From Escherichia phage CBA6, in sequence record KM389296.1: a stretch of 24,317 bases of DNA; one strand, 5' to 3'. This document shows positions 13,042-24,129 of this stretch, piece by piece. Position numbers and translations under genes: made by a program. Numbering within the stretch: the stretch's first letter is position 1; every line of letters starts with the position of its first letter. Under the pieces are notes generated by a model. It was not told the origin of the DNA, did no database searches, and saw nothing but the letters and a program-made list of their open reading frames with translations.

Positions 13042-15762
13042 TTATTTCAGACGGATCTGGAGATTACCACCCAGTGATTGTTCATATTCACTGTAAGCAC
13101 TGTCACCATTGCTCATAGCCCATTCGTCCGACTGACGGGCGCTATCCAAAGTCATGAGATTCGGTTCGGTCGGGTTGTATCCCTTCGCCTTCGCATCGTT
13201 GTATACCGTTTGCAGGTACTGGTTGGCACGGTTAATCTGATCTTTGAACTCACGATATGCACCTTCGGTTGTGTTGCGACGGAAGGTGATACTCCAATCG
13301 ACGTTAAGAACTGCGCCGCTATTGGTCACGTATACCTGCCAATCAAGATCTCGTCCGTTGGGAGCACTGTTGCGGATGGAATCGGAATATGTGGCCAGAT
13401 CGCTGCTGTTCTTGCCCCCAGCAGCTTGGTCTTTGGCGCGAGCCAGGGCATCAATGACTGCAGTGCGGTTTCTAGACTGCGCCAGATCTTTGTCTTGGAA
13501 CATAATTGCACCAAACTTACTGACGGTGATATCATTCAGAAACAGCTTGTTCGGGTTATAGTTTGATGAACTGAGATGGCTCAATTGAGCCGCAGCGTCT
13601 TTCAGGCGTTGTGAAGTCTCATTCAACGCATCTTGCACAGACTTGACAGATAACTGAATGTCATATCCGCTGCTGTTGACTACATTTCGGCCATTTTCGG
13701 TCAGCATGGTCGTGATGTTGGCCTTATTACGATCGAAGTCGTAAGTCACGTTCGTAACGAACCGTGCGGCTTGCAGCTGGCTACCCGCAGGGAACTGGAA
13801 GTCCCAAGCCACAGAGAACCCATGAACGGTTTCACCAAATATCTTCGCATTGCTTGGGGCTTTCAGGTTCGCAGTGATGACAGCGTTATCACTGGAATTT
13901 GTGTTGATTTCGCCGAAGATAGTCTTCCCATCAGAAGACTGGACCATCAGAGTATCTTTGCTGCGCCAGTCATAACGAACAATAAACGTCGTTCGAGGGA
14001 ACTCTTTTATCAGATCGAGTTTGACTGCCTTACCCAGAGTAAAACGATTTAACAATGCATCGGCGATCTTCAAAGTAAACGAAATACAATCGACATAAGA
14101 ATAACCCTGGGAACGGGAAACCTTTTGAATCGGGTATGGGGCACCGTTGATCGGAACAACACGACATTCCACTTCACCTTTGAACTGAGAATCAGCAGCG
14201 CGGGATATCGCACTGACGATTTCAAAAGCAGCGTTTTTCACGTCGCCTTCCAGCAGCAGCTGTTCATTGCCAGATAAATCAGAAACCACTTCTACAGAGA
14301 GTTTGCTGTTGACAATCCCCCAAAAATAGACTTGAATATCCAACCCGCCAGAAGTTCGATATTTGCCAGCACCAACCCGAGACAATTTTTCACCAGCATA
14401 CATGCCGACTTGCTGAGGAGCATATGTATCAACGATGCCCAAGATGCGGGCGATATAACCCTGGTTGCGCAGATCATCCATAGAACCGGTTTTTGGAAGA
14501 GTTTTCATGTCGACGGGAGCAGTAGCCCCTATTCCAAACTCGACGTATGCCACGATCTTCCCACCAGACTTCAGTTCCCAGCCCATTCCCTGACGGTCTG
14601 AAGCCGCCATGATTTTGCGATCCACTTCTCCACGCCCGACATATTCTTTGTTGAATACCGTCACTTGTGCGATAGACTGAGTGCGGGCAATCTTCGCCAT
14701 CGCGCCATCTTTGACCATGATAGCCAGGTCATTGGAACTCAGGGTCACGTCGTTCGCGCCGACCACCTTCACAACAGAACTGAAGATGCCGTTGGACTTT
14801 GCCATAACGGAGATGTTCCAGTCCGGATTTATGGAAGACGGTGCATCAGCATCAACGTCAACAGTCAAAACCACTTGCCCACCTTTCTTGAACACATACT
14901 GATCATAGATGCCTTTATTTTGTTTTGTCATGACAGCGCCGACCAGATCCTGGTTAGTGAATCCCCGCTTCATGCTCCATGCCACTTCGGTGCCGTCCGG
15001 ATATTTGTCGAAATCATACCCAAAGAACTTCGCCACTTCACGTGAGCCACTGACCAGCTGCACGTAATTTCCGCGAATTGGGTCACGGCCATTTTTCAGT
15101 TCAAGACTAGTGTCAGAACTGTTATACCATTGGCGGTTTACTTCAATCTCGGTGCTGGAGCCAGTCCCAACATCAGGGGTGTTGTTCTGAACCGGAACGT
15201 CTCCGACTTTGTCTGGATCGTCCCAAGTCACGCCTTTCATTTTCGGACCATCAAATACCTGAGCAGGATCCTTGCCTTTACGCACAACCCATACGAAGGC
15301 ACGGTCAGGGATTGGGGTATAAGTCAGATCCATGACGTTGAGTTTCTGCTTCAGACCAGATTGACGAATAATTTTTGGGAGTAACGTCGTTCCGCGTTCT
15401 AGAGCTTTCTTGGAGAAGTTAATCGCAAACCCATCAATGGTTTTACCCAGCGGTGTCGCCATGAATTGTTTAGTCGCTTCGATCATGGATGCGATGACAC
15501 GCATTGGGTTTTTGAAACGACCGATTGCGTCTGGATAGGTTGAACCACGTTTCTGGCCTATGAAGACCTGACGAACGTTCTTGCCCAGCCCCTGCGGGGT
15601 ATAAAATTGGATGCGGAATTCTTTTTCATCTTCGTCTACGAACGTGAAGAAAATGTCACCAGCATTTTTCTTGCCGAAAGTCAATTCGTATGGAGCGGAG
15701 TTAAACGCTTCGTCCAATTGTTTGGACTCGTCAAGGAAATTTAAGAAAGATTGGATGGCCAT
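13042..15762 (-). CDS. Large hypothetical protein (906 aa), function unknown
   Basis: Uninterrupted 2.7-kb ORF with ATG and AGGAG Shine-Dalgarno (AGGAGAATTACAATG); bracketed by hairpins; no catalytic motif recognised. Confidence 0.8.
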   Translation of the reverse strand: MAIQSFLNFLDESKQLDEAFNSAPYELTFGKKNAGDIFFTFVDEDEKEFRIQFYTPQGLGKNVRQVFIGQKRGSTYPDAIGRFKNPMRVIASMIEATKQFMATPLGKTIDGFAINFSKKALERGTTLLPKIIRQSGLKQKLNVMDLTYTPIPDRAFVWVVRKGKDPAQVFDGPKMKGVTWDDPDKVGDVPVQNNTPDVGTGSSTEIEVNRQWYNSSDTSLELKNGRDPIRGNYVQLVSGSREVAKFFGYDFDKYPDGTEVAWSMKRGFTNQDLVGAVMTKQNKGIYDQYVFKKGGQVVLTVDVDADAPSSINPDWNISVMAKSNGIFSSVVKVVGANDVTLSSNDLAIMVKDGAMAKIARTQSIAQVTVFNKEYVGRGEVDRKIMAASDRQGMGWELKSGGKIVAYVEFGIGATAPVDMKTLPKTGSMDDLRNQGYIARILGIVDTYAPQQVGMYAGEKLSRVGAGKYRTSGGLDIQVYFWGIVNSKLSVEVVSDLSGNEQLLLEGDVKNAAFEIVSAISRAADSQFKGEVECRVVPINGAPYPIQKVSRSQGYSYVDCISFTLKIADALLNRFTLGKAVKLDLIKEFPRTTFIVRYDWRSKDTLMVQSSDGKTIFGEINTNSSDNAVITANLKAPSNAKIFGETVHGFSVAWDFQFPAGSQLQAARFVTNVTYDFDRNKANITTMLTENGRNVVNSSGYDIQLSVKSVQDALNETSQRLKDAAAQLSHLSSSNYNPNKLFLNDITVSKFGAIMFQDKDLAQSRNRTAVIDALARAKDQAAGGKNSSDLATYSDSIRNSAPNGRDLDWQVYVTNSGAVLNVDWSITFRRNTTEGAYREFKDQINRANQYLQTVYNDAKAKGYNPTEPNLMTLDSARQSDEWAMSNGDSAYSEYEQSLGGNLQIRLK

Positions 15763-20907: not shown

Positions 20908-22023
20908 TTATGCATCCAATGTGTTCAGGCGTTGTTGGGCAGCATTATAGAATTGTTCTGCTAATTTGCAAACATTTTCAGGGCGCTGGATATTATTGGC
21001 GGCGCGGATATCTTTCTTTAGGACTTCCACAGCATCAGTCGCCACCATCTCTTCAGTGACTTCTACCTTCTCAGACGAGACTGTGATAGTCCGATCTATA
21101 AAGTTGTAATCGATGCATTTACAGCGCTTCAGCGCGTCGCAGAACTTTTCATAATGCTTGGCATTATCGCGGTTCTGTACAATCACTTTAACGATTTGCC
21201 CTTCAATACCCAAACCATTGTTTAGCCAATCTGGGTCAATCCAGTTTCCTTCGGTGTCGGAAGACATTTGGGTGTAGTCGTATTCGATGAATCGGAACAA
21301 CGTTTGTTGCTCGTTGTTGGGAATAAACAATTCCCCGCCTTTCATGTCGTCTACATAGAATCCTCGGTTCGTCCCGTCTTTATGGTCTTCCCAGGTAAGG
21401 TGATAAGGAGTCCCAATATACTGAATGTTACCTTCCATCGAACGGGTATGGAAATGTCCGGTATCCACGCGCTCGAACTTGGAAAGGAGCGCCAAGTCGA
21501 TCTGACCTTTATCACATACAGAGGACTGGTACATTTTGAACCCTGCCAACTCCAGATGCGCAAAACAGTACTTGGCGTCTGTATCTTGTATCGCTTTAAC
21601 AGATGCATCATAATTCTCTTTATTGATCCATGGGAGAAGCAATACCTTTTCGCCTTCAATCGAAACTTCAGTGGGTTCACTGTAATAATGATAGACGTCT
21701 GGCGCTAATTCATTCAGATAGGATGGCCAGTTGATACGGTTAGATTCTTCTAAGGTGATATCATGGTTTCCAACGATGCCATTCCATTTGATACCCGCCT
21801 TTCTCAGGGCTGGAGTCAGTTCATCTTTCAACCAATCTTTGTCGCGCCCGTACATAAATTTACGAACATCAAATGTGTCGCCGAATTGCCAAACTTCTTT
21901 AATGTCTGCATCTACCAATTCGGGAATAAAATAGTTGATGAGATAATTCTTTATGAATTCACGAACGTAACGGGAACCATTGCGGCTCCCGATGTGTAAA
22001 TCGCCAATTTTAGCAATCGCCAT
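20908..22023 (-). CDS. Recombination nuclease subunit (T4 gp47 / Mre11 / SbcD-like), 371 aa
   Basis: Calcineurin-like phosphoesterase motifs (IGDLHIG, GDTFD, GNHD, GHFH). The track's 22038 start is TTG; ATG 22023 has a GGAG Shine-Dalgarno. Confidence 0.9.
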   Translation of the reverse strand: MAIAKIGDLHIGSRNGSRYVREFIKNYLINYFIPELVDADIKEVWQFGDTFDVRKFMYGRDKDWLKDELTPALRKAGIKWNGIVGNHDITLEESNRINWPSYLNELAPDVYHYYSEPTEVSIEGEKVLLLPWINKENYDASVKAIQDTDAKYCFAHLELAGFKMYQSSVCDKGQIDLALLSKFERVDTGHFHTRSMEGNIQYIGTPYHLTWEDHKDGTNRGFYVDDMKGGELFIPNNEQQTLFRFIEYDYTQMSSDTEGNWIDPDWLNNGLGIEGQIVKVIVQNRDNAKHYEKFCDALKRCKCIDYNFIDRTITVSSEKVEVTEEMVATDAVEVLKKDIRAANNIQRPENVCKLAEQFYNAAQQRLNTLDA

Positions 22024-22780
22024 TATTCTTTTCTCCAACTGATTCGGCTAACAATGTGGGGCTGTCCATTATATCTTCAAGACTAAATTGAGTAGAGCCG
22101 AAGTCATTATCTGAATTATCTTCGGCGTCAGCGGTAATGGTATTTTCACTCTTCGTAAGACATTGAAGTATACCGCGAGGGATTTTCTTATTCTTTTCCT
22201 CTTCTTTGATAGCCGTTTGTTTTTGGCGTTCCTTTTCACGCTGGGCTTCTTTCTTATTTTCGAAATTACCGATGCGTTCACGAAAGTCCATCGTTATCCC
22301 AGTGCTATCAACGAAGGTTTGTTGTTGGAAGTCTGGGTCATCCGATAAAGCTGCGAACCCACCTGCTTCTTCAAAGGAACGCAATTTAATATAGTTGTGT
22401 TCTTCTTCACTCGTGAGTTTCTTGGCGAATGAGCGATCAGCACACATAGTCACCCAAGAGAAGAAGTTGATCTTTCCTTTCTTGCCGATATGGCTAACAT
22501 CAAAGGTGTGAAGGTAACGAAGGATGTTCACAACCGCTTCACTCACCATGTCTTCACGATATGGATAATCACGGTAGTTGTAGCGCATACTCATATTCTT
22601 GATTATCATCTGAACATTCATGGCCACATAATTGGGGATTCTTGGTAGGGGTGTTCCTTCGGCTAATGCCTTTTTACGAGCAGGGATCCAATCACGCAAT
22701 ATCCCCACAACTCGATCGTTATCTTCGTCAGTGAAATATTTGGTGACGTTATCACCCCTGTCTACAAAATTCATACCCAT
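22010..22780 (-). CDS. Late-transcription sigma factor (T4 gp55-like) with extended charged C-terminus
   Basis: Collinear with recalled T4 gp55 (ILRDWI; YVAMNVQMIIKNMSMRYNYRDY...LHTFD; NFFSWVTMCADRSFAKKL); position next to gp47/gp46 as in T4. The track's 22795 start is TTG; ATG 22780 has a GAGGA Shine-Dalgarno. Confidence 0.7.
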   Translation of the reverse strand: MGMNFVDRGDNVTKYFTDEDNDRVVGILRDWIPARKKALAEGTPLPRIPNYVAMNVQMIIKNMSMRYNYRDYPYREDMVSEAVVNILRYLHTFDVSHIGKKGKINFFSWVTMCADRSFAKKLTSEEEHNYIKLRSFEEAGGFAALSDDPDFQQQTFVDSTGITMDFRERIGNFENKKEAQREKERQKQTAIKEEEKNKKIPRGILQCLTKSENTITADAEDNSDNDFGSTQFSLEDIMDSPTLLAESVGEKNNGDC

Positions 22781-22791
22781 CGTGATAATCC

Positions 22792-23319
22792 TCAAATACC
22801 AATGAATTCATTGAAAGAACCAACAACCTTTCTGACCAGGAAACGATTATTTTCAAGAACCATCGAGCTATTTTCTTTGGCTCTGACGCTCCACTGATCT
22901 GCGATTTCGTTGCCGATATTCCCCGCATGACCTTTCACCCATTTTAATTCAAGTTCACAAATTGAACAAACTTTGTCATAATAATTGAACAATTCGAGTA
23001 GGAGTTCTGTGTTCTTAGGCGGCATCCCTTCATATTCCCATTTTCTACGCCACTCCAAAACACTATTGATAACATATTGGCTATCGGATATAATACGGGC
23101 TGGGGGAATACAGCGTTCACCGCAATTCGAGAATTTCCATAGAATCTTCAAGGCGTTTATAACCCCAAGCAACTCAGCGATATTATTCGTTGACGGTGGG
23201 GGTAAATACCCATAAAACACTTTCCATTGCTCTCCAGTGATTGGACTGATAGCAAATGCCCAACCTGCGGCTTGTGTCTTCTGCGGGGAAGATGCCCCGT
23301 CAGTGTATATTTCAATCAT
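22792..23319 (-). CDS. rnhA: Ribonuclease HI (bacterial RnhA-type)
   Basis: Catalytic motifs IYTDGA, NNIAELLGVINAL, SDSQYVINSV, WVKGHAGNIGNEIAD. The track's 23334 start is TTG; first ATG is 23319. Confidence 0.8.
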   Translation of the reverse strand: MIEIYTDGASSPQKTQAAGWAFAISPITGEQWKVFYGYLPPPSTNNIAELLGVINALKILWKFSNCGERCIPPARIISDSQYVINSVLEWRRKWEYEGMPPKNTELLLELFNYYDKVCSICELELKWVKGHAGNIGNEIADQWSVRAKENSSMVLENNRFLVRKVVGSFNEFIGI

Positions 23320-23361
23320 GTATAAGTATCCCAAACTGGTTTTATCGATGAGGAACGAATC

Positions 23362-24129
23362 ATGTCAGAACGCGCATATCGTTTCAGTCTGACCGCCCCA
23401 GAAATTGAGCGTTTGCTCTTGTCTATAAATGATTCCATACAAAAGCTGGACATCGTTTATGACTACACGGCGGGTGGGACTGAAGGTCAAGTCGCAGCTG
23501 CGTCAGCTGTCAAAAACATGTGGCTAAAACTCAATGAGATGGTCACAGGTGAAGGTCTTAAAGACGCAATCAATGCAGCTAACGACAGCAACGTATTCAC
23601 CGATTATTATAAGTCTATTTTAGATCGCGAAACCTGGAAATTTATTGGTTCTCCAGCTGATTTATTAGCACGTGATGATATAGACACTTCTAATTTTGAA
23701 GGCGGTGAAGTAATCCTTCTGCAAAAGAACGCTTCGGGTAATCCAGAATTCCAATACTGGAAGAGAACTCCCGTGGCGGGAGGAGATCCAACATTTGGTT
23801 GGGCTTCAGTATATGAGGGCAATTCCAACGACTCTGCTATTGATATCCCTGTTGTCGGAACCAGCATACTGAAAACAATCCCAAAAGCATTGTTCCATAT
23901 GATAGAATTCCGAGTACATGCTCATGAATCCACGTTAGGCCATTGGCAGGATACTGATGGTAAAGTCGGATACCGTGGTGAAGATTTGATATACAGCCTG
24001 TACAACCACGTTCAGACTAAACCAATAGCAAATATATCTTTCAGCCAAGATGTGGATAATATGATCATCACGATAACGACACTTGAACCAAATATCAAGT
24101 GCCATTTATCGTTTATTGCAGGTTATTAA
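23362..24129 (+). CDS. Hypothetical protein (255 aa)
   Basis: ATG with GAGGAA Shine-Dalgarno 6 nt upstream; only plus-strand gene in the right half; stop overlaps the convergent minus gene; no recognisable motif. Confidence 0.6.
   Translation: MSERAYRFSLTAPEIERLLLSINDSIQKLDIVYDYTAGGTEGQVAAASAVKNMWLKLNEMVTGEGLKDAINAANDSNVFTDYYKSILDRETWKFIGSPADLLARDDIDTSNFEGGEVILLQKNASGNPEFQYWKRTPVAGGDPTFGWASVYEGNSNDSAIDIPVVGTSILKTIPKALFHMIEFRVHAHESTLGHWQDTDGKVGYRGEDLIYSLYNHVQTKPIANISFSQDVDNMIITITTLEPNIKCHLSFIAGY

Follow-up and report, generated by a model that had tools for sequence, protein, structure and literature searches.

The window analysed here, i.e., the whole stretch of 24,317 nucleotides from Escherichia phage CBA6 (sequence record KM389296.1), carries on its minus strand a late sigma factor gene and, overlapping its 3′ end, gene 47. 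The features discussed below are the following (window coordinates, strand, content and basis):

22789..22793, minus strand: ribosome-binding site GAGGA of the sigma gene; read from the sequence
22010..22780, minus strand: late sigma factor gene (gp55 homologue), 256 codons and a TAA stop; ORF and translation
22286..22780, minus strand: residues 1–165, sigma-region-2-like core with helix-loop-helix; AF2, Foldseek, profile
22184..22285, minus strand: residues 166–199, long Lys/Glu-rich helix; AF2, alignment
22157..22183, minus strand: residues 200–208 (IPRGILQCL), probable sliding-clamp-binding motif, internal (motif 1); alignment, ends of relatives
22013..22156, minus strand: residues 209–256, acidic disordered tail, lineage-specific; AF2, tblastn, dN/dS
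22064..22105, minus strand: residues 226–239 (DFGSTQFSLEDIMD), second hydrophobic-acidic motif (motif 2); conservation, dN/dS
22013..22063, minus strand: residues 240–256, mosaic terminal segment; allele comparison
20908..22023, minus strand: gene 47 (SbcD/Mre11-like nuclease subunit); PHROG 100, E 8e-109

The sigma ORF runs from the ATG at 22780 to the stop at 22010–22012 and encodes 256 aa, with the GAGGA located 8 nt upstream of the ATG, where it shares bases with the TGA that ends the upstream RNase HI gene. Its stop lies 14 nt inside gene 47, the ATG of which is at 22023; the 14-nt overlap described in an earlier note on this DNA was thus read correctly, and the lengths given there for this protein and for T4 gp55 (256 vs 185 aa) both hold.

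Identity and core of the late sigma factor

The protein and the late sigma factor annotated in Vi01-like phages (Kuttervirus, Ackermannviridae) are identical at 99–100% of positions, with 100% identity to the ‘late sigma transcription factor’ annotated in Kuttervirus phages, and the DNA identity to Vi01 is 99.5%. The late sigma gene is already known and annotated in Vi01 and its relatives, and the practical impact is therefore limited. PHROG 234 (‘late sigma transcription factor’) matches with an E-value of 1.1e-53, residues 12–199 falling on positions 4–169 of the 181 of the profile, and a profile made from 25 clade members, with T4 left out, matched T4 gp55 as the sole PDB sequence (E 6.5e-7); positions 20–177 of profile A1 align to T4 gp55 12–159. 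Profile searching recovered 1956 family representatives, and the median length of gp55 family representatives is 202 aa. Note that a PDB search with the single protein sequence gave a chance match only (dynein light chain, E 0.86), and that no Pfam or NCBIfam model matches the sigma protein; since these libraries are silent on T4 gp55 too, they do not discriminate.

The AF2 model places the core helices at residues 18–41, 50–66, 75–88, 106–138 and 153–160 (pLDDT mostly 76–93). Its best Foldseek match in the PDB was T4 gp55 (7d7c_F; prob 1.0, E 5e-3, TM 0.67 on the target), superposed over 118 columns with an rmsd of 2.5 Å, and the second was sigma-E region 2. In an alignment of 20 sequences (A2), Y15 and W31 align with T4 Y10 and W23, aromatics that are absolutely conserved according to a T4 review (PMC2988020), while D165, F173 and E174 align with T4 D147, Y155 and E156, conserved segment 3 of gp55 being T4 ~141–156 (PMC2988020). 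The core dN/dS is ~0.05. Altogether, the PHROG 234 match, the T4-free profile match to T4 gp55 and the AF2 model, nearest to 7d7c_F, bear out the gp55-like core that the earlier note had proposed. Judged from sequence and model, the gene product is the late sigma factor of a Vi01-like phage and the T4 gp55 orthologue, and residues 1–165 are shown by homology and modelling to be the gp55 core, which would bind RNA polymerase and the late −10 element. The annotation of the Vi01 genome also includes gp33 (Vi01_069c), gp45 (Vi01_135c) and the loader gp44/62 (Vi01_133c/134c), all outside the window. The late-promoter sequence TATAAATA was absent from the window, and a 2011 paper reports that the ViI-type late promoter had yet to be recognised (PMC3184105).

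The linker helix and the internal candidate motif

The protein had been described as ending in a ~70-aa C-terminal extension, which does not stand as worded: T4 gp55 ends with D185 opposite N213 in alignment A2, hence only 43 residues extend beyond the T4 C-terminus, while the rest of the 71 residues extra compared to T4 fall within the core (~18) and the linker (~10). The ‘~70-aa extension’ is three things, namely a linker helix, a candidate clamp motif and an acidic tail. The reported succession of Lys/Glu-rich and acidic stretches is present, with a net charge of +4 over residues 170–203 and −10 over residues 214–256; the stretches that had been quoted are also found, except that the quoted end (…FGSTQF) is not the end of the protein, which continues for 24 residues more.

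For residues 166–199, the AF2 model predicts one helix (pLDDT ~82–84, down to ~71 in the last block), which opens with the family-conserved D165 / F173-E174 (T4 D147 / Y155-E156). A Gibbs search of 149 distant family representatives, restricted to their last 30 residues, returned a K/R-rich stretch as the dominant common feature; the linker emerged and the hydrophobic motif did not. By these comparisons, the Lys/Glu-rich stretch corresponds to the family-wide basic linker, seen in most gp55 relatives, and represents no novelty, the last core helix being prolonged in the model into a Lys/Glu-rich helix in place of the 21-residue flexible linker of T4. As to whether the extension is lineage-specific, alignment to homologues answers yes for the acidic part after motif 1 and no for the Lys/Glu-rich linker.

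At the end of this helix, KKIPRGILQCL (198–208) aligns with the T4 clamp-binding motif SLDFLY, and L205-Q-C-L208 falls column for column on T4 gp55 L177-D-F-L180 in alignment A2, the same columns reading SLEDLL, NLLSLL, TLLDFM and GLARLL in other members. The closest short relatives (P0043, P0046, P0047, L035 and Vibrio D532) stop 4–8 residues past motif 1, where the AF2 model has a short helix (202–209). In addition, motif 1 resembles the C-terminus of the phage's own DNA polymerase, KRRVNLLSMMGKKG, which ends as VNLLSMM or VNLLAMM across three genera, and T4 gp43, gp55 and gp33 have [ST]LDFL in common. An internal position is tolerated in T4, in which gp55–gp33 fusions with an internal gp55 clamp-binding domain are functional (PMC2988020). 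However, the flanks of motif 1 are basic instead of acidic, and a Cys replaces the T4 Phe. A family matrix, learned from distant gp55 C-termini with the sequence after the linker only, recovers the T4 gp55 and gp33 motifs; GILQCL is not among its top matches in the sigma protein, and it does not decide between motif 1 and motif 2. From the alignment, GILQCL most likely represents the canonical clamp-binding motif in an internal position, and it may tether the sigma–polymerase complex to the phage sliding clamp, as in T4. Thus, the idea that the charged C-terminal region contacts the clamp retains a candidate inside the ‘extension’, GILQCL (aligned to T4 LDFLY), although in a different sense from that proposed.

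The acidic tail, its second motif and the competing readings

Residues 211–256 have pLDDT values <50 in the AF2 model, so that the disorder prediction suggested earlier for the extension comes out as disorder for the acidic tail. Searched alone by tblastn, the tail matches solely Ackermannviridae gp55 genes (269 records), and it is, as far as these matches reach, the sole lineage-specific part of the protein, found only in gp55 of enterobacterial Ackermannviridae. Our search of the literature found no description of this Ackermannviridae gp55 tail. The length after motif 1 is 4–8 residues in the short relatives and Vibrio D532, 17–27 in Bue1-type phages and 34–55 in the others. The acidic tail is under purifying selection: its dN/dS is ~0.21–0.3, i.e., 4–6 times the core value, with 12–18 synonymous differences per pairwise comparison over about 19–29 synonymous sites, and the TA[DQ]AEDD stretch and motif 2 are kept across at least four genera. 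A DNA-level cause of this conservation was considered and rejected, as promoter and terminator scans of 21800–23500 gave site numbers no higher than in shuffled sequence and synonymous sites vary freely. The 48 residues after GILQCL would then be a clade-specific disordered acidic tail retained by selection, and an extra interaction through it is plausible, the conserved second motif and the purifying selection being in favour. Shorter ORFs, of 61–70 aa, do exist in other frames of the tail region.

Motif 2 has the pattern DFGxTQFSLEDIM and is kept as [FY]-x-[LMI]-[ED]-[ED] in Kuttervirus, Taipeivirus, Agtrevirus and Limestonevirus, more weakly in the Miltonvirus-type, with a dN/dS of 0.07–0.21; it is still present in the 242-aa Limestonevirus form without the terminal segment. 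Its S233-L-E-D-I-M238 fits the [ST]-L-x-x-hydrophobic-hydrophobic form of clamp peptides, in a flexible context (pLDDT <50) with acidic neighbours, and may be compared with the T4 clamp-type motifs SLDFLY, SLDFLF and TLDFLL. Similar motifs are the sole C-terminal ones elsewhere in the family (HFELEDLID in P0169, SLEDLLD in P0110 and SLEDFL in P0074). In the family C-terminus matrix, SLEDIM scores 3 bits, a score that 1.7% of null positions also reach. Note that motif 2 is absent in the Bue1-type and Vibrio D532, which retain gp33 and the gp55–gp47 arrangement, hence it is not essential to the mechanism. Another apparent copy in the Vi01 proteome, TMEDLM at the DexA C-terminus, was rejected because by alignment its counterpart in T4 DexA is the last catalytic helix, which makes it part of the fold and not a docking motif.

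We infer that DFGxTQFSLEDIM serves for docking, as a short motif of the hydrophobic-acidic clamp-binding type, most likely making a second contact with the trimeric clamp for avidity; the spacer of 16–22 residues between the motifs could span to a neighbouring clamp protomer. On this reading, the final ~17 residues would be weakly constrained, with their end set by the ribosome-binding site and start codon of the overlapping gene 47, as is consistent with translational coupling. The acidic tail as a second clamp contact is our best guess, and we give a probability of about one half to the whole explanation, i.e., a gp55 orthologue with an internal clamp motif and a tail in which motif 2 is the second clamp contact. 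A bolder statement, that each sigma bears two tandem clamp-docking motifs or else a relocated gp33 N-terminal motif marking a new docking site, is rather improbable. If tandem motifs were true, a polymerase-like internal motif would be followed 16–22 residues downstream by a T4-like acidic one, one sigma would fill two pockets of the trimeric clamp, and with gp33 in the third pocket the clamp would be saturated in late transcription and DNA polymerase excluded.

Among the alternatives, motif 2 might have another docking partner instead of the clamp, for instance RNA polymerase, gp33 or a host protein, the function of the gp33 N-terminus having moved to gp55. Tail residues 230–237 (TQFSLEDI) match the T4 gp33 N-terminus (TQFSLNDI) at 7/8 positions, and only 49 of 200,000 shuffled tails match T4 gp33 plus gp55 equally well (P 2.5e-4). 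In addition, MT[QL]FSL[NS]D is preserved in gp33 throughout the Tevenvirinae, in contrast to the hypervariable 20 residues that follow it, and the Vi01-type gp33, of only 80 aa, begins with MSDQQIAQ… and is devoid of the T4-type N-terminal motif. However, the comparison of motifs was post hoc, BLASTP of the tail against T4 gp33 gives nothing, so the 7/8 match comes from the shuffle test only, and T4 gene 33 begins inside the 3′ end of dsbA, with its first 8 codons in the overlap, which may account for the conservation of the gp33 motif. The N-terminal third of gp33 is also highly divergent and missing in many homologues (PMC2988020). No function for the gp33 N-terminus was found in the accessible literature, and the Vibrio relatives, which share this short gp33, lack a tail on gp55. 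We consider this alternative unlikely. A related idea, that the tail compensates for a lost gp33 clamp motif, was rejected: the gp33 C-termini are alike with and without the tail, and nothing thus suggests compensation.

The tail might also act as an intramolecular or electrostatic regulator, folding back on the basic linker helix or on DNA-binding surfaces and limiting clamp-independent or non-specific DNA binding before assembly, as do sigma-70 region 1.1 and the acidic tails of single-strand-binding proteins. The strong segregation of charge along the C-terminal region, the predicted disorder and the short acidic ends commonly found past the hydrophobic motif in the gp55 family are all compatible with this role. 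Nevertheless, the tail is not docked on the body in the AF2 model (pLDDT <50), a specific aromatic-aliphatic motif is conserved beyond charge alone, and these phages have gp33, which in T4 represses basal transcription, so that this possibility appears as doubtful as the preceding alternative.

Equally improbable, in our opinion, is that the tail is mostly a by-product with little function of its own, in which a stop was lost and the sequence before gene 47 became coding and was kept for translational coupling. Several observations speak for this reading. Two terminal alleles occur in Kuttervirus, …IMDSPTLLAESVGEKNNGDC (256 aa) and …EICSMEPDWEEAKKRALEREQQNNGDC (263 aa), each of which recurs in another genus, and a third form of 242 aa is without the segment; dN between the terminal alleles is 0.59–0.66, and the segment is a mosaic with indels. 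The last 8 sigma codons also serve as the translation-initiation region of gene 47, GTTGGAGAAAAGAATAATGGCGATTGCTAA holding its GGAG and ATG, which explains the conserved …EKNNGDC end, and the gene 47 start MAIAKIGDLH is conserved. Throughout the clade, gene 47 comes directly after the sigma gene; across the family the two genes overlap by 14, 10, 4 or 1 nt or lie 1 or 16 nt apart, and the tail lengths past motif 1 form a graded series (see above). In contrast, a dN/dS of 0.21–0.29 over the whole tail, still lower in motif 2, with synonymous change near saturation, the retention of motif 2 and TA[DQ]AEDD in at least four genera, and the conservation of each terminal allele between genera all argue against a mere by-product. 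Finally, an annotation or frame artefact, for which only the unusual length speaks (compared to the family median), is practically excluded, since the same ORF, tail included, is open in 269 phage records, synonymous changes are plentiful and non-synonymous ones depressed, as fits the sigma frame, and the other frames are without any ORF of at least 100 aa across the tail region; the open records and the substitution pattern thus rule out the mis-called frame that the earlier note had itself named as a refutation.

Significance and comparison with known systems

To our knowledge, clamp-activated late transcription has been dissected in T4 alone, where the sigma factor and the coactivator give one C-terminal clamp-binding motif each. 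The phage group considered here (on Salmonella, E. coli and Klebsiella) is large and widely used in biocontrol work, and it offers a natural variant, in which the charged linker is predicted to be rigid, the first motif is internal and an acidic tail carrying a second motif has been added. Should motif 2 bind the clamp or some other partner, the activation complex would differ in stoichiometry and geometry, and the competition of replication and late transcription for the clamp would become easier to approach. Failing such binding, the tail would be an example of a coding region growing into the space before an overlapping downstream gene.

Compared to T4 gp55 (PDB 7D7C/7D7D), the CBA6 protein shares the core fold and family, the Y10/W23 aromatics, the D…[FY]E segment and a hydrophobic motif after the linker, at the position of the T4 clamp motif, and, as in T4, the genome (Vi01) encodes the partners gp33, gp45 and gp44/62. 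It differs by a linker predicted as a 34-residue charged helix instead of a 21-residue flexible segment, by an internal GILQCL with basic flanks where the T4 SLDFLY has acidic ones, and by 43 more acidic residues with a second motif at the end. In addition, the sigma gene lies directly upstream of gene 47 and overlaps it, whereas T4 has nine genes in between. The gp55 proteins of Vibrio phage D532, P0043, P0046 and P0047, with 35–59% identity over the core, share the basic linker, a G-[ILV]-x-x-[FYL]-[LMFI] motif and the RNase HI – gp55 – gp47 order; unlike the CBA6 protein, they end at 212–218 aa without acidic tail or second motif. The T4-type gp33 motif MTQFSLNDI is also a terminal segment of a late-transcription protein, but of another protein and at the opposite terminus. 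A similar layout was found in unrelated gp55 lineages (P0063, P0091, P0082 and P0092), in which a basic linker and a hydrophobic motif are followed by an acidic spacer and a hydrophobic-acidic motif near the end. Since these lineages are distant and their tails have no detectable homology to the CBA6 tail, two-motif tails probably arose independently.

The late sigma gene and its neighbours

The sigma gene ends inside the next gene, both being on the minus strand:
22780 (ATG) to 22010-22012 (TAA), minus strand: late sigma factor, an open reading frame of 256 codons read from the sequence
start at 22023, minus strand: gp47 homologue, SbcD/Mre11-type nuclease subunit (PHROG 100, E 8e-109)

The GAGGA of the sigma gene overlaps the stop codon of the RNase HI gene upstream, while its own stop sits 14 nt within the gp47 homologue gene, the overlap already seen in the earlier note. 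The window DNA is 99.5% identical to Salmonella phage Vi01 (Kuttervirus, Ackermannviridae), whose genome likewise carries genes for gp33, the gp45 clamp and its loader. Since proteins of this phage group that are 100% identical to the sigma protein are annotated 'late sigma transcription factor' or 'Gp55 sigma factor for late transcription', neither the gene prediction nor its naming as gp55 is new to public databases. The core is gp55, as the earlier note had proposed. Indeed, residues 12-199 match PHROG 234 (late sigma transcription factor, E 1e-53), and a profile made from 25 Ackermannviridae-type sequences only found T4 gp55 as its sole PDB match (E 6.5e-7; profile 20-177 on T4 12-159). 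In addition, the helical core is confident in the AlphaFold2 model, for which a Foldseek search of the PDB gave 7D7C chain F (T4 gp55 in the open complex) as the top match and sigma-E region 2 as the next, and Y15 and W31 align with T4 Y10 and W23, termed absolutely conserved in a T4 review (PMC2988020). Pfam and NCBIfam gave no match for the CBA6 sigma protein, nor for T4 gp55.

The T4 late-promoter octamer TATAAATA is absent from window positions 1-24317, and a 2011 paper (PMC3184105) described the late promoter of ViI-type phages as not yet identified. We noted TATAAGTA (23321-23328) 33 nt upstream of the plus-strand gene at 23362, and TATAATAT and CATAAATA (402-409, 438-445) upstream of the baseplate-hub gene at 467. 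Elsewhere, the minus-strand ORF 13042-15762 (PHROG 3867, unknown function) encodes 906 aa and its Vi01 orthologue, Vi01_094c, is annotated with 2400 nt (~799 aa), a length gap that is a polymorphism between near-identical phages.

Anatomy of the extension and its probable clamp-binding motif

The C-terminal extension, put at ~70 aa in the earlier note, is real but was mis-sized, since only 43 residues lie past the T4 C-terminus in A2, a 20-sequence gp55-family alignment where N213 aligns with D185, the last residue of T4 gp55 (185 aa).

Extra residues relative to T4 gp55 along alignment A2
W31: +8
N105: +12
D165-E174: +18
L205-N213: +28

From these growing offsets, the 71 additional residues therefore divide into ~18 core residues, 10 linker residues and 43 past the T4 C-terminus. 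The Lys/Glu-rich stretch …NKKEAQREKERQKQTAIKEEEKNKK, quoted as part of the extension, is not a lineage-specific novelty, a K/R-rich segment being the strongest common feature among the final 30 residues in 149 distant representatives of the family. Residues 166-199 are predicted by AlphaFold2 as one unbroken helix, whereas the T4 counterpart is a linker of 21 flexible residues (PMC7892883, PMC2988020).

In T4, a C-terminal gp45-binding motif is common to gp55 (…SPSLDFLYEAND), gp33 (…NTLDFLL) and DNA polymerase (…ASLDFLFG) (PMC2988020, PMC7892883). L205-Q-C-L208 of KKIPRGILQCL sits on T4 L177-D-F-L180 in A2, and other family members carry SLEDLL, NLLSLL, TLLDFM or GLARLL in the same columns. 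The nearest shorter relatives stop 4-8 residues past this motif (e.g., …KMPAGIRNFLKGGV, …KMPVGLLQYMRGSK, …NSVLRFIKPK and, in Vibrio phage D532, …NGLAKLFASQKEKSE). By position and resemblance, the canonical clamp-binding motif is most probably GILQCL, which is internal in this protein; a position matrix from distant family C-termini recovered the T4 gp55 and gp33 motifs as top matches and did not single out GILQCL. T4 gp55-gp33 fusions, in which the gp55 clamp-binding domain is made internal, still work in vitro (PMC2988020). The phage's DNA polymerase ends in …KRRVNLLSMMGKKG, an ending kept in Taipeivirus and Agtrevirus, and its Vibrio phage counterpart is VNLFAL; thus, in each lineage the hydrophobic hexamers of polymerase and sigma are alike, as they are in T4. 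The clamp contact suggested earlier for the extension thereby gains a probable site in GILQCL, and the acidic part beyond is a clade-specific addition whose function we infer rather than show.

Two further C-termini were observed. The 70-aa uncharacterised Vi01_049c (Vi01 locus L004:30355-30567, outside the window) ends in …SDKVNLLSLMRK, nearly the polymerase end, and is by this likeness a candidate small clamp-binding protein. In the D532 polymerase (L009:723-872), VNLFAL is internal, with a Lys-rich tail of 35 residues after it, a charge solution opposite to that of the acidic Ackermannviridae sigma tail.

Conservation and mosaic end of the acidic tail

Residues 209-256 are predicted disordered (AlphaFold2 pLDDT <50), in line with the disorder check proposed earlier, and the net charge is -10 across residues 214-256. 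The acidic part, unlike the Lys/Glu-rich part, is lineage-specific: tblastn with the tail only matched 269 phage records, all of them Ackermannviridae-type phages that infect enterobacteria, and the listed matches all lie on the gp55 gene. CBA6 sigma has 48 residues after the hydrophobic motif, against a maximum of 32 in family representatives (median 4, 90th percentile 18; Gibbs-derived motif positions; median protein length 202 aa). The tail is translated and under selection on the basis of its pairwise Nei-Gojobori dN/dS of 0.21-0.29 vs ~0.05 for the core, each tail pair showing 12-18 synonymous differences over ~19-29 synonymous sites. A frame artefact is excluded by the tail's retention in these records and by a codon-change pattern that fits the frame. 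TA[DQ]AEDD and, above all, DFGxTQ[FY]x[LM]E[DE] are kept in Kuttervirus, Taipeivirus, Agtrevirus and Limestonevirus, weaker in Miltonvirus-type sequences and absent in Bue1-type and shorter relatives. No description of the tail was found in the literature searched.

Downstream of the second of these motifs, Kuttervirus sigma C-termini form a mosaic region with two alleles: the 256-aa CBA6 form (…IMDSPTLLAESVGEKNNGDC), common to Kuttervirus and Taipeivirus, and the commoner 263-aa form (…EICSMEPDWEEAKKRALEREQQNNGDC), common to Kuttervirus and Agtrevirus, with a dN of 0.59-0.66 between them. Limestonevirus has a 242-aa form ending shortly past the motif. This distribution of the last ~17-27 sigma codons (window 22013-22063; loci L011-L034), with a different partner genus for each Kuttervirus allele, suggests that recombination has occurred at the gp55/gp47 junction. 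The final …EKNNGDC codons (GGAGAAAAGAATAATGGCGATTGCTAA) include the GGAG and the start ATG of gene 47, and their conservation is explained by this overlapping start region. Across the clade the genes overlap by 14, 10, 4 or 1 nt or are separated by 1 or 16 nt, a tight junction that fits translational coupling and a tail that expanded into the stretch separating the ancestral stop from gene 47.

Possible role of the tail

The clamp is trimeric, each protomer offering one pocket, and T4 gp33 and gp55 occupy one pocket each (PMC7892883). The conserved tail motif (S233-L-E-D-I-M238, with F232 just before it) is built like the hydrophobic-acidic clamp motifs found in T4 and in other gp55 proteins, and similar sequences are the only C-terminal motif in some of the latter (HFELEDLID in P0169, SLEDLLD in P0110, SLEDFL in P0074). 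Two hydrophobic motifs within an acidic tail occur independently in several distant gp55 lineages. The spacer between GILQCL and the conserved tail motif, as counted from an alignment, is 16-22 residues, which could span to the neighbouring pocket given general ring-clamp dimensions. On this form and geometry we prefer, tentatively and with a probability of roughly 0.3, a tail that would make a second clamp contact, adding avidity.

Alternatively, the motif may dock on another partner: TQFSLEDI of the tail and TQFSLNDI at the T4 gp33 N-terminus are identical at 7/8 positions (shuffle P 2.5e-4), and the gp33 motif is kept across Tevenvirinae and missing in the 80-aa Vi01 gp33. However, this likeness was found post hoc, BLASTP reports no match, the T4 gp33 N-terminal codons overlap dsbA, and Vibrio relatives have a short gp33 yet no gp55 tail. 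In T4 gene 33 (L006:6194-6532) and its homologues (P0198-P0242), we observed that MT[QL]FSL[NS]D, at the extreme N-terminus, is kept across Tevenvirinae, with codons overlapping the dsbA 3′ end, and that residues 10-30 are hypervariable with indels. The segregated charge would also suit an electrostatic regulator resembling region 1.1, but the tail is undocked on the body in the AlphaFold2 model, and a specific motif, not charge alone, is kept. A mostly functionless read-through kept for gene 47 coupling fits the terminal segment but does not fit the selection on the motif.

The anatomical description of the extension is much firmer than the step to a second clamp contact. Altogether, the CBA6 sigma factor departs modestly from a late-transcription system that is well understood, and is not a surprise.
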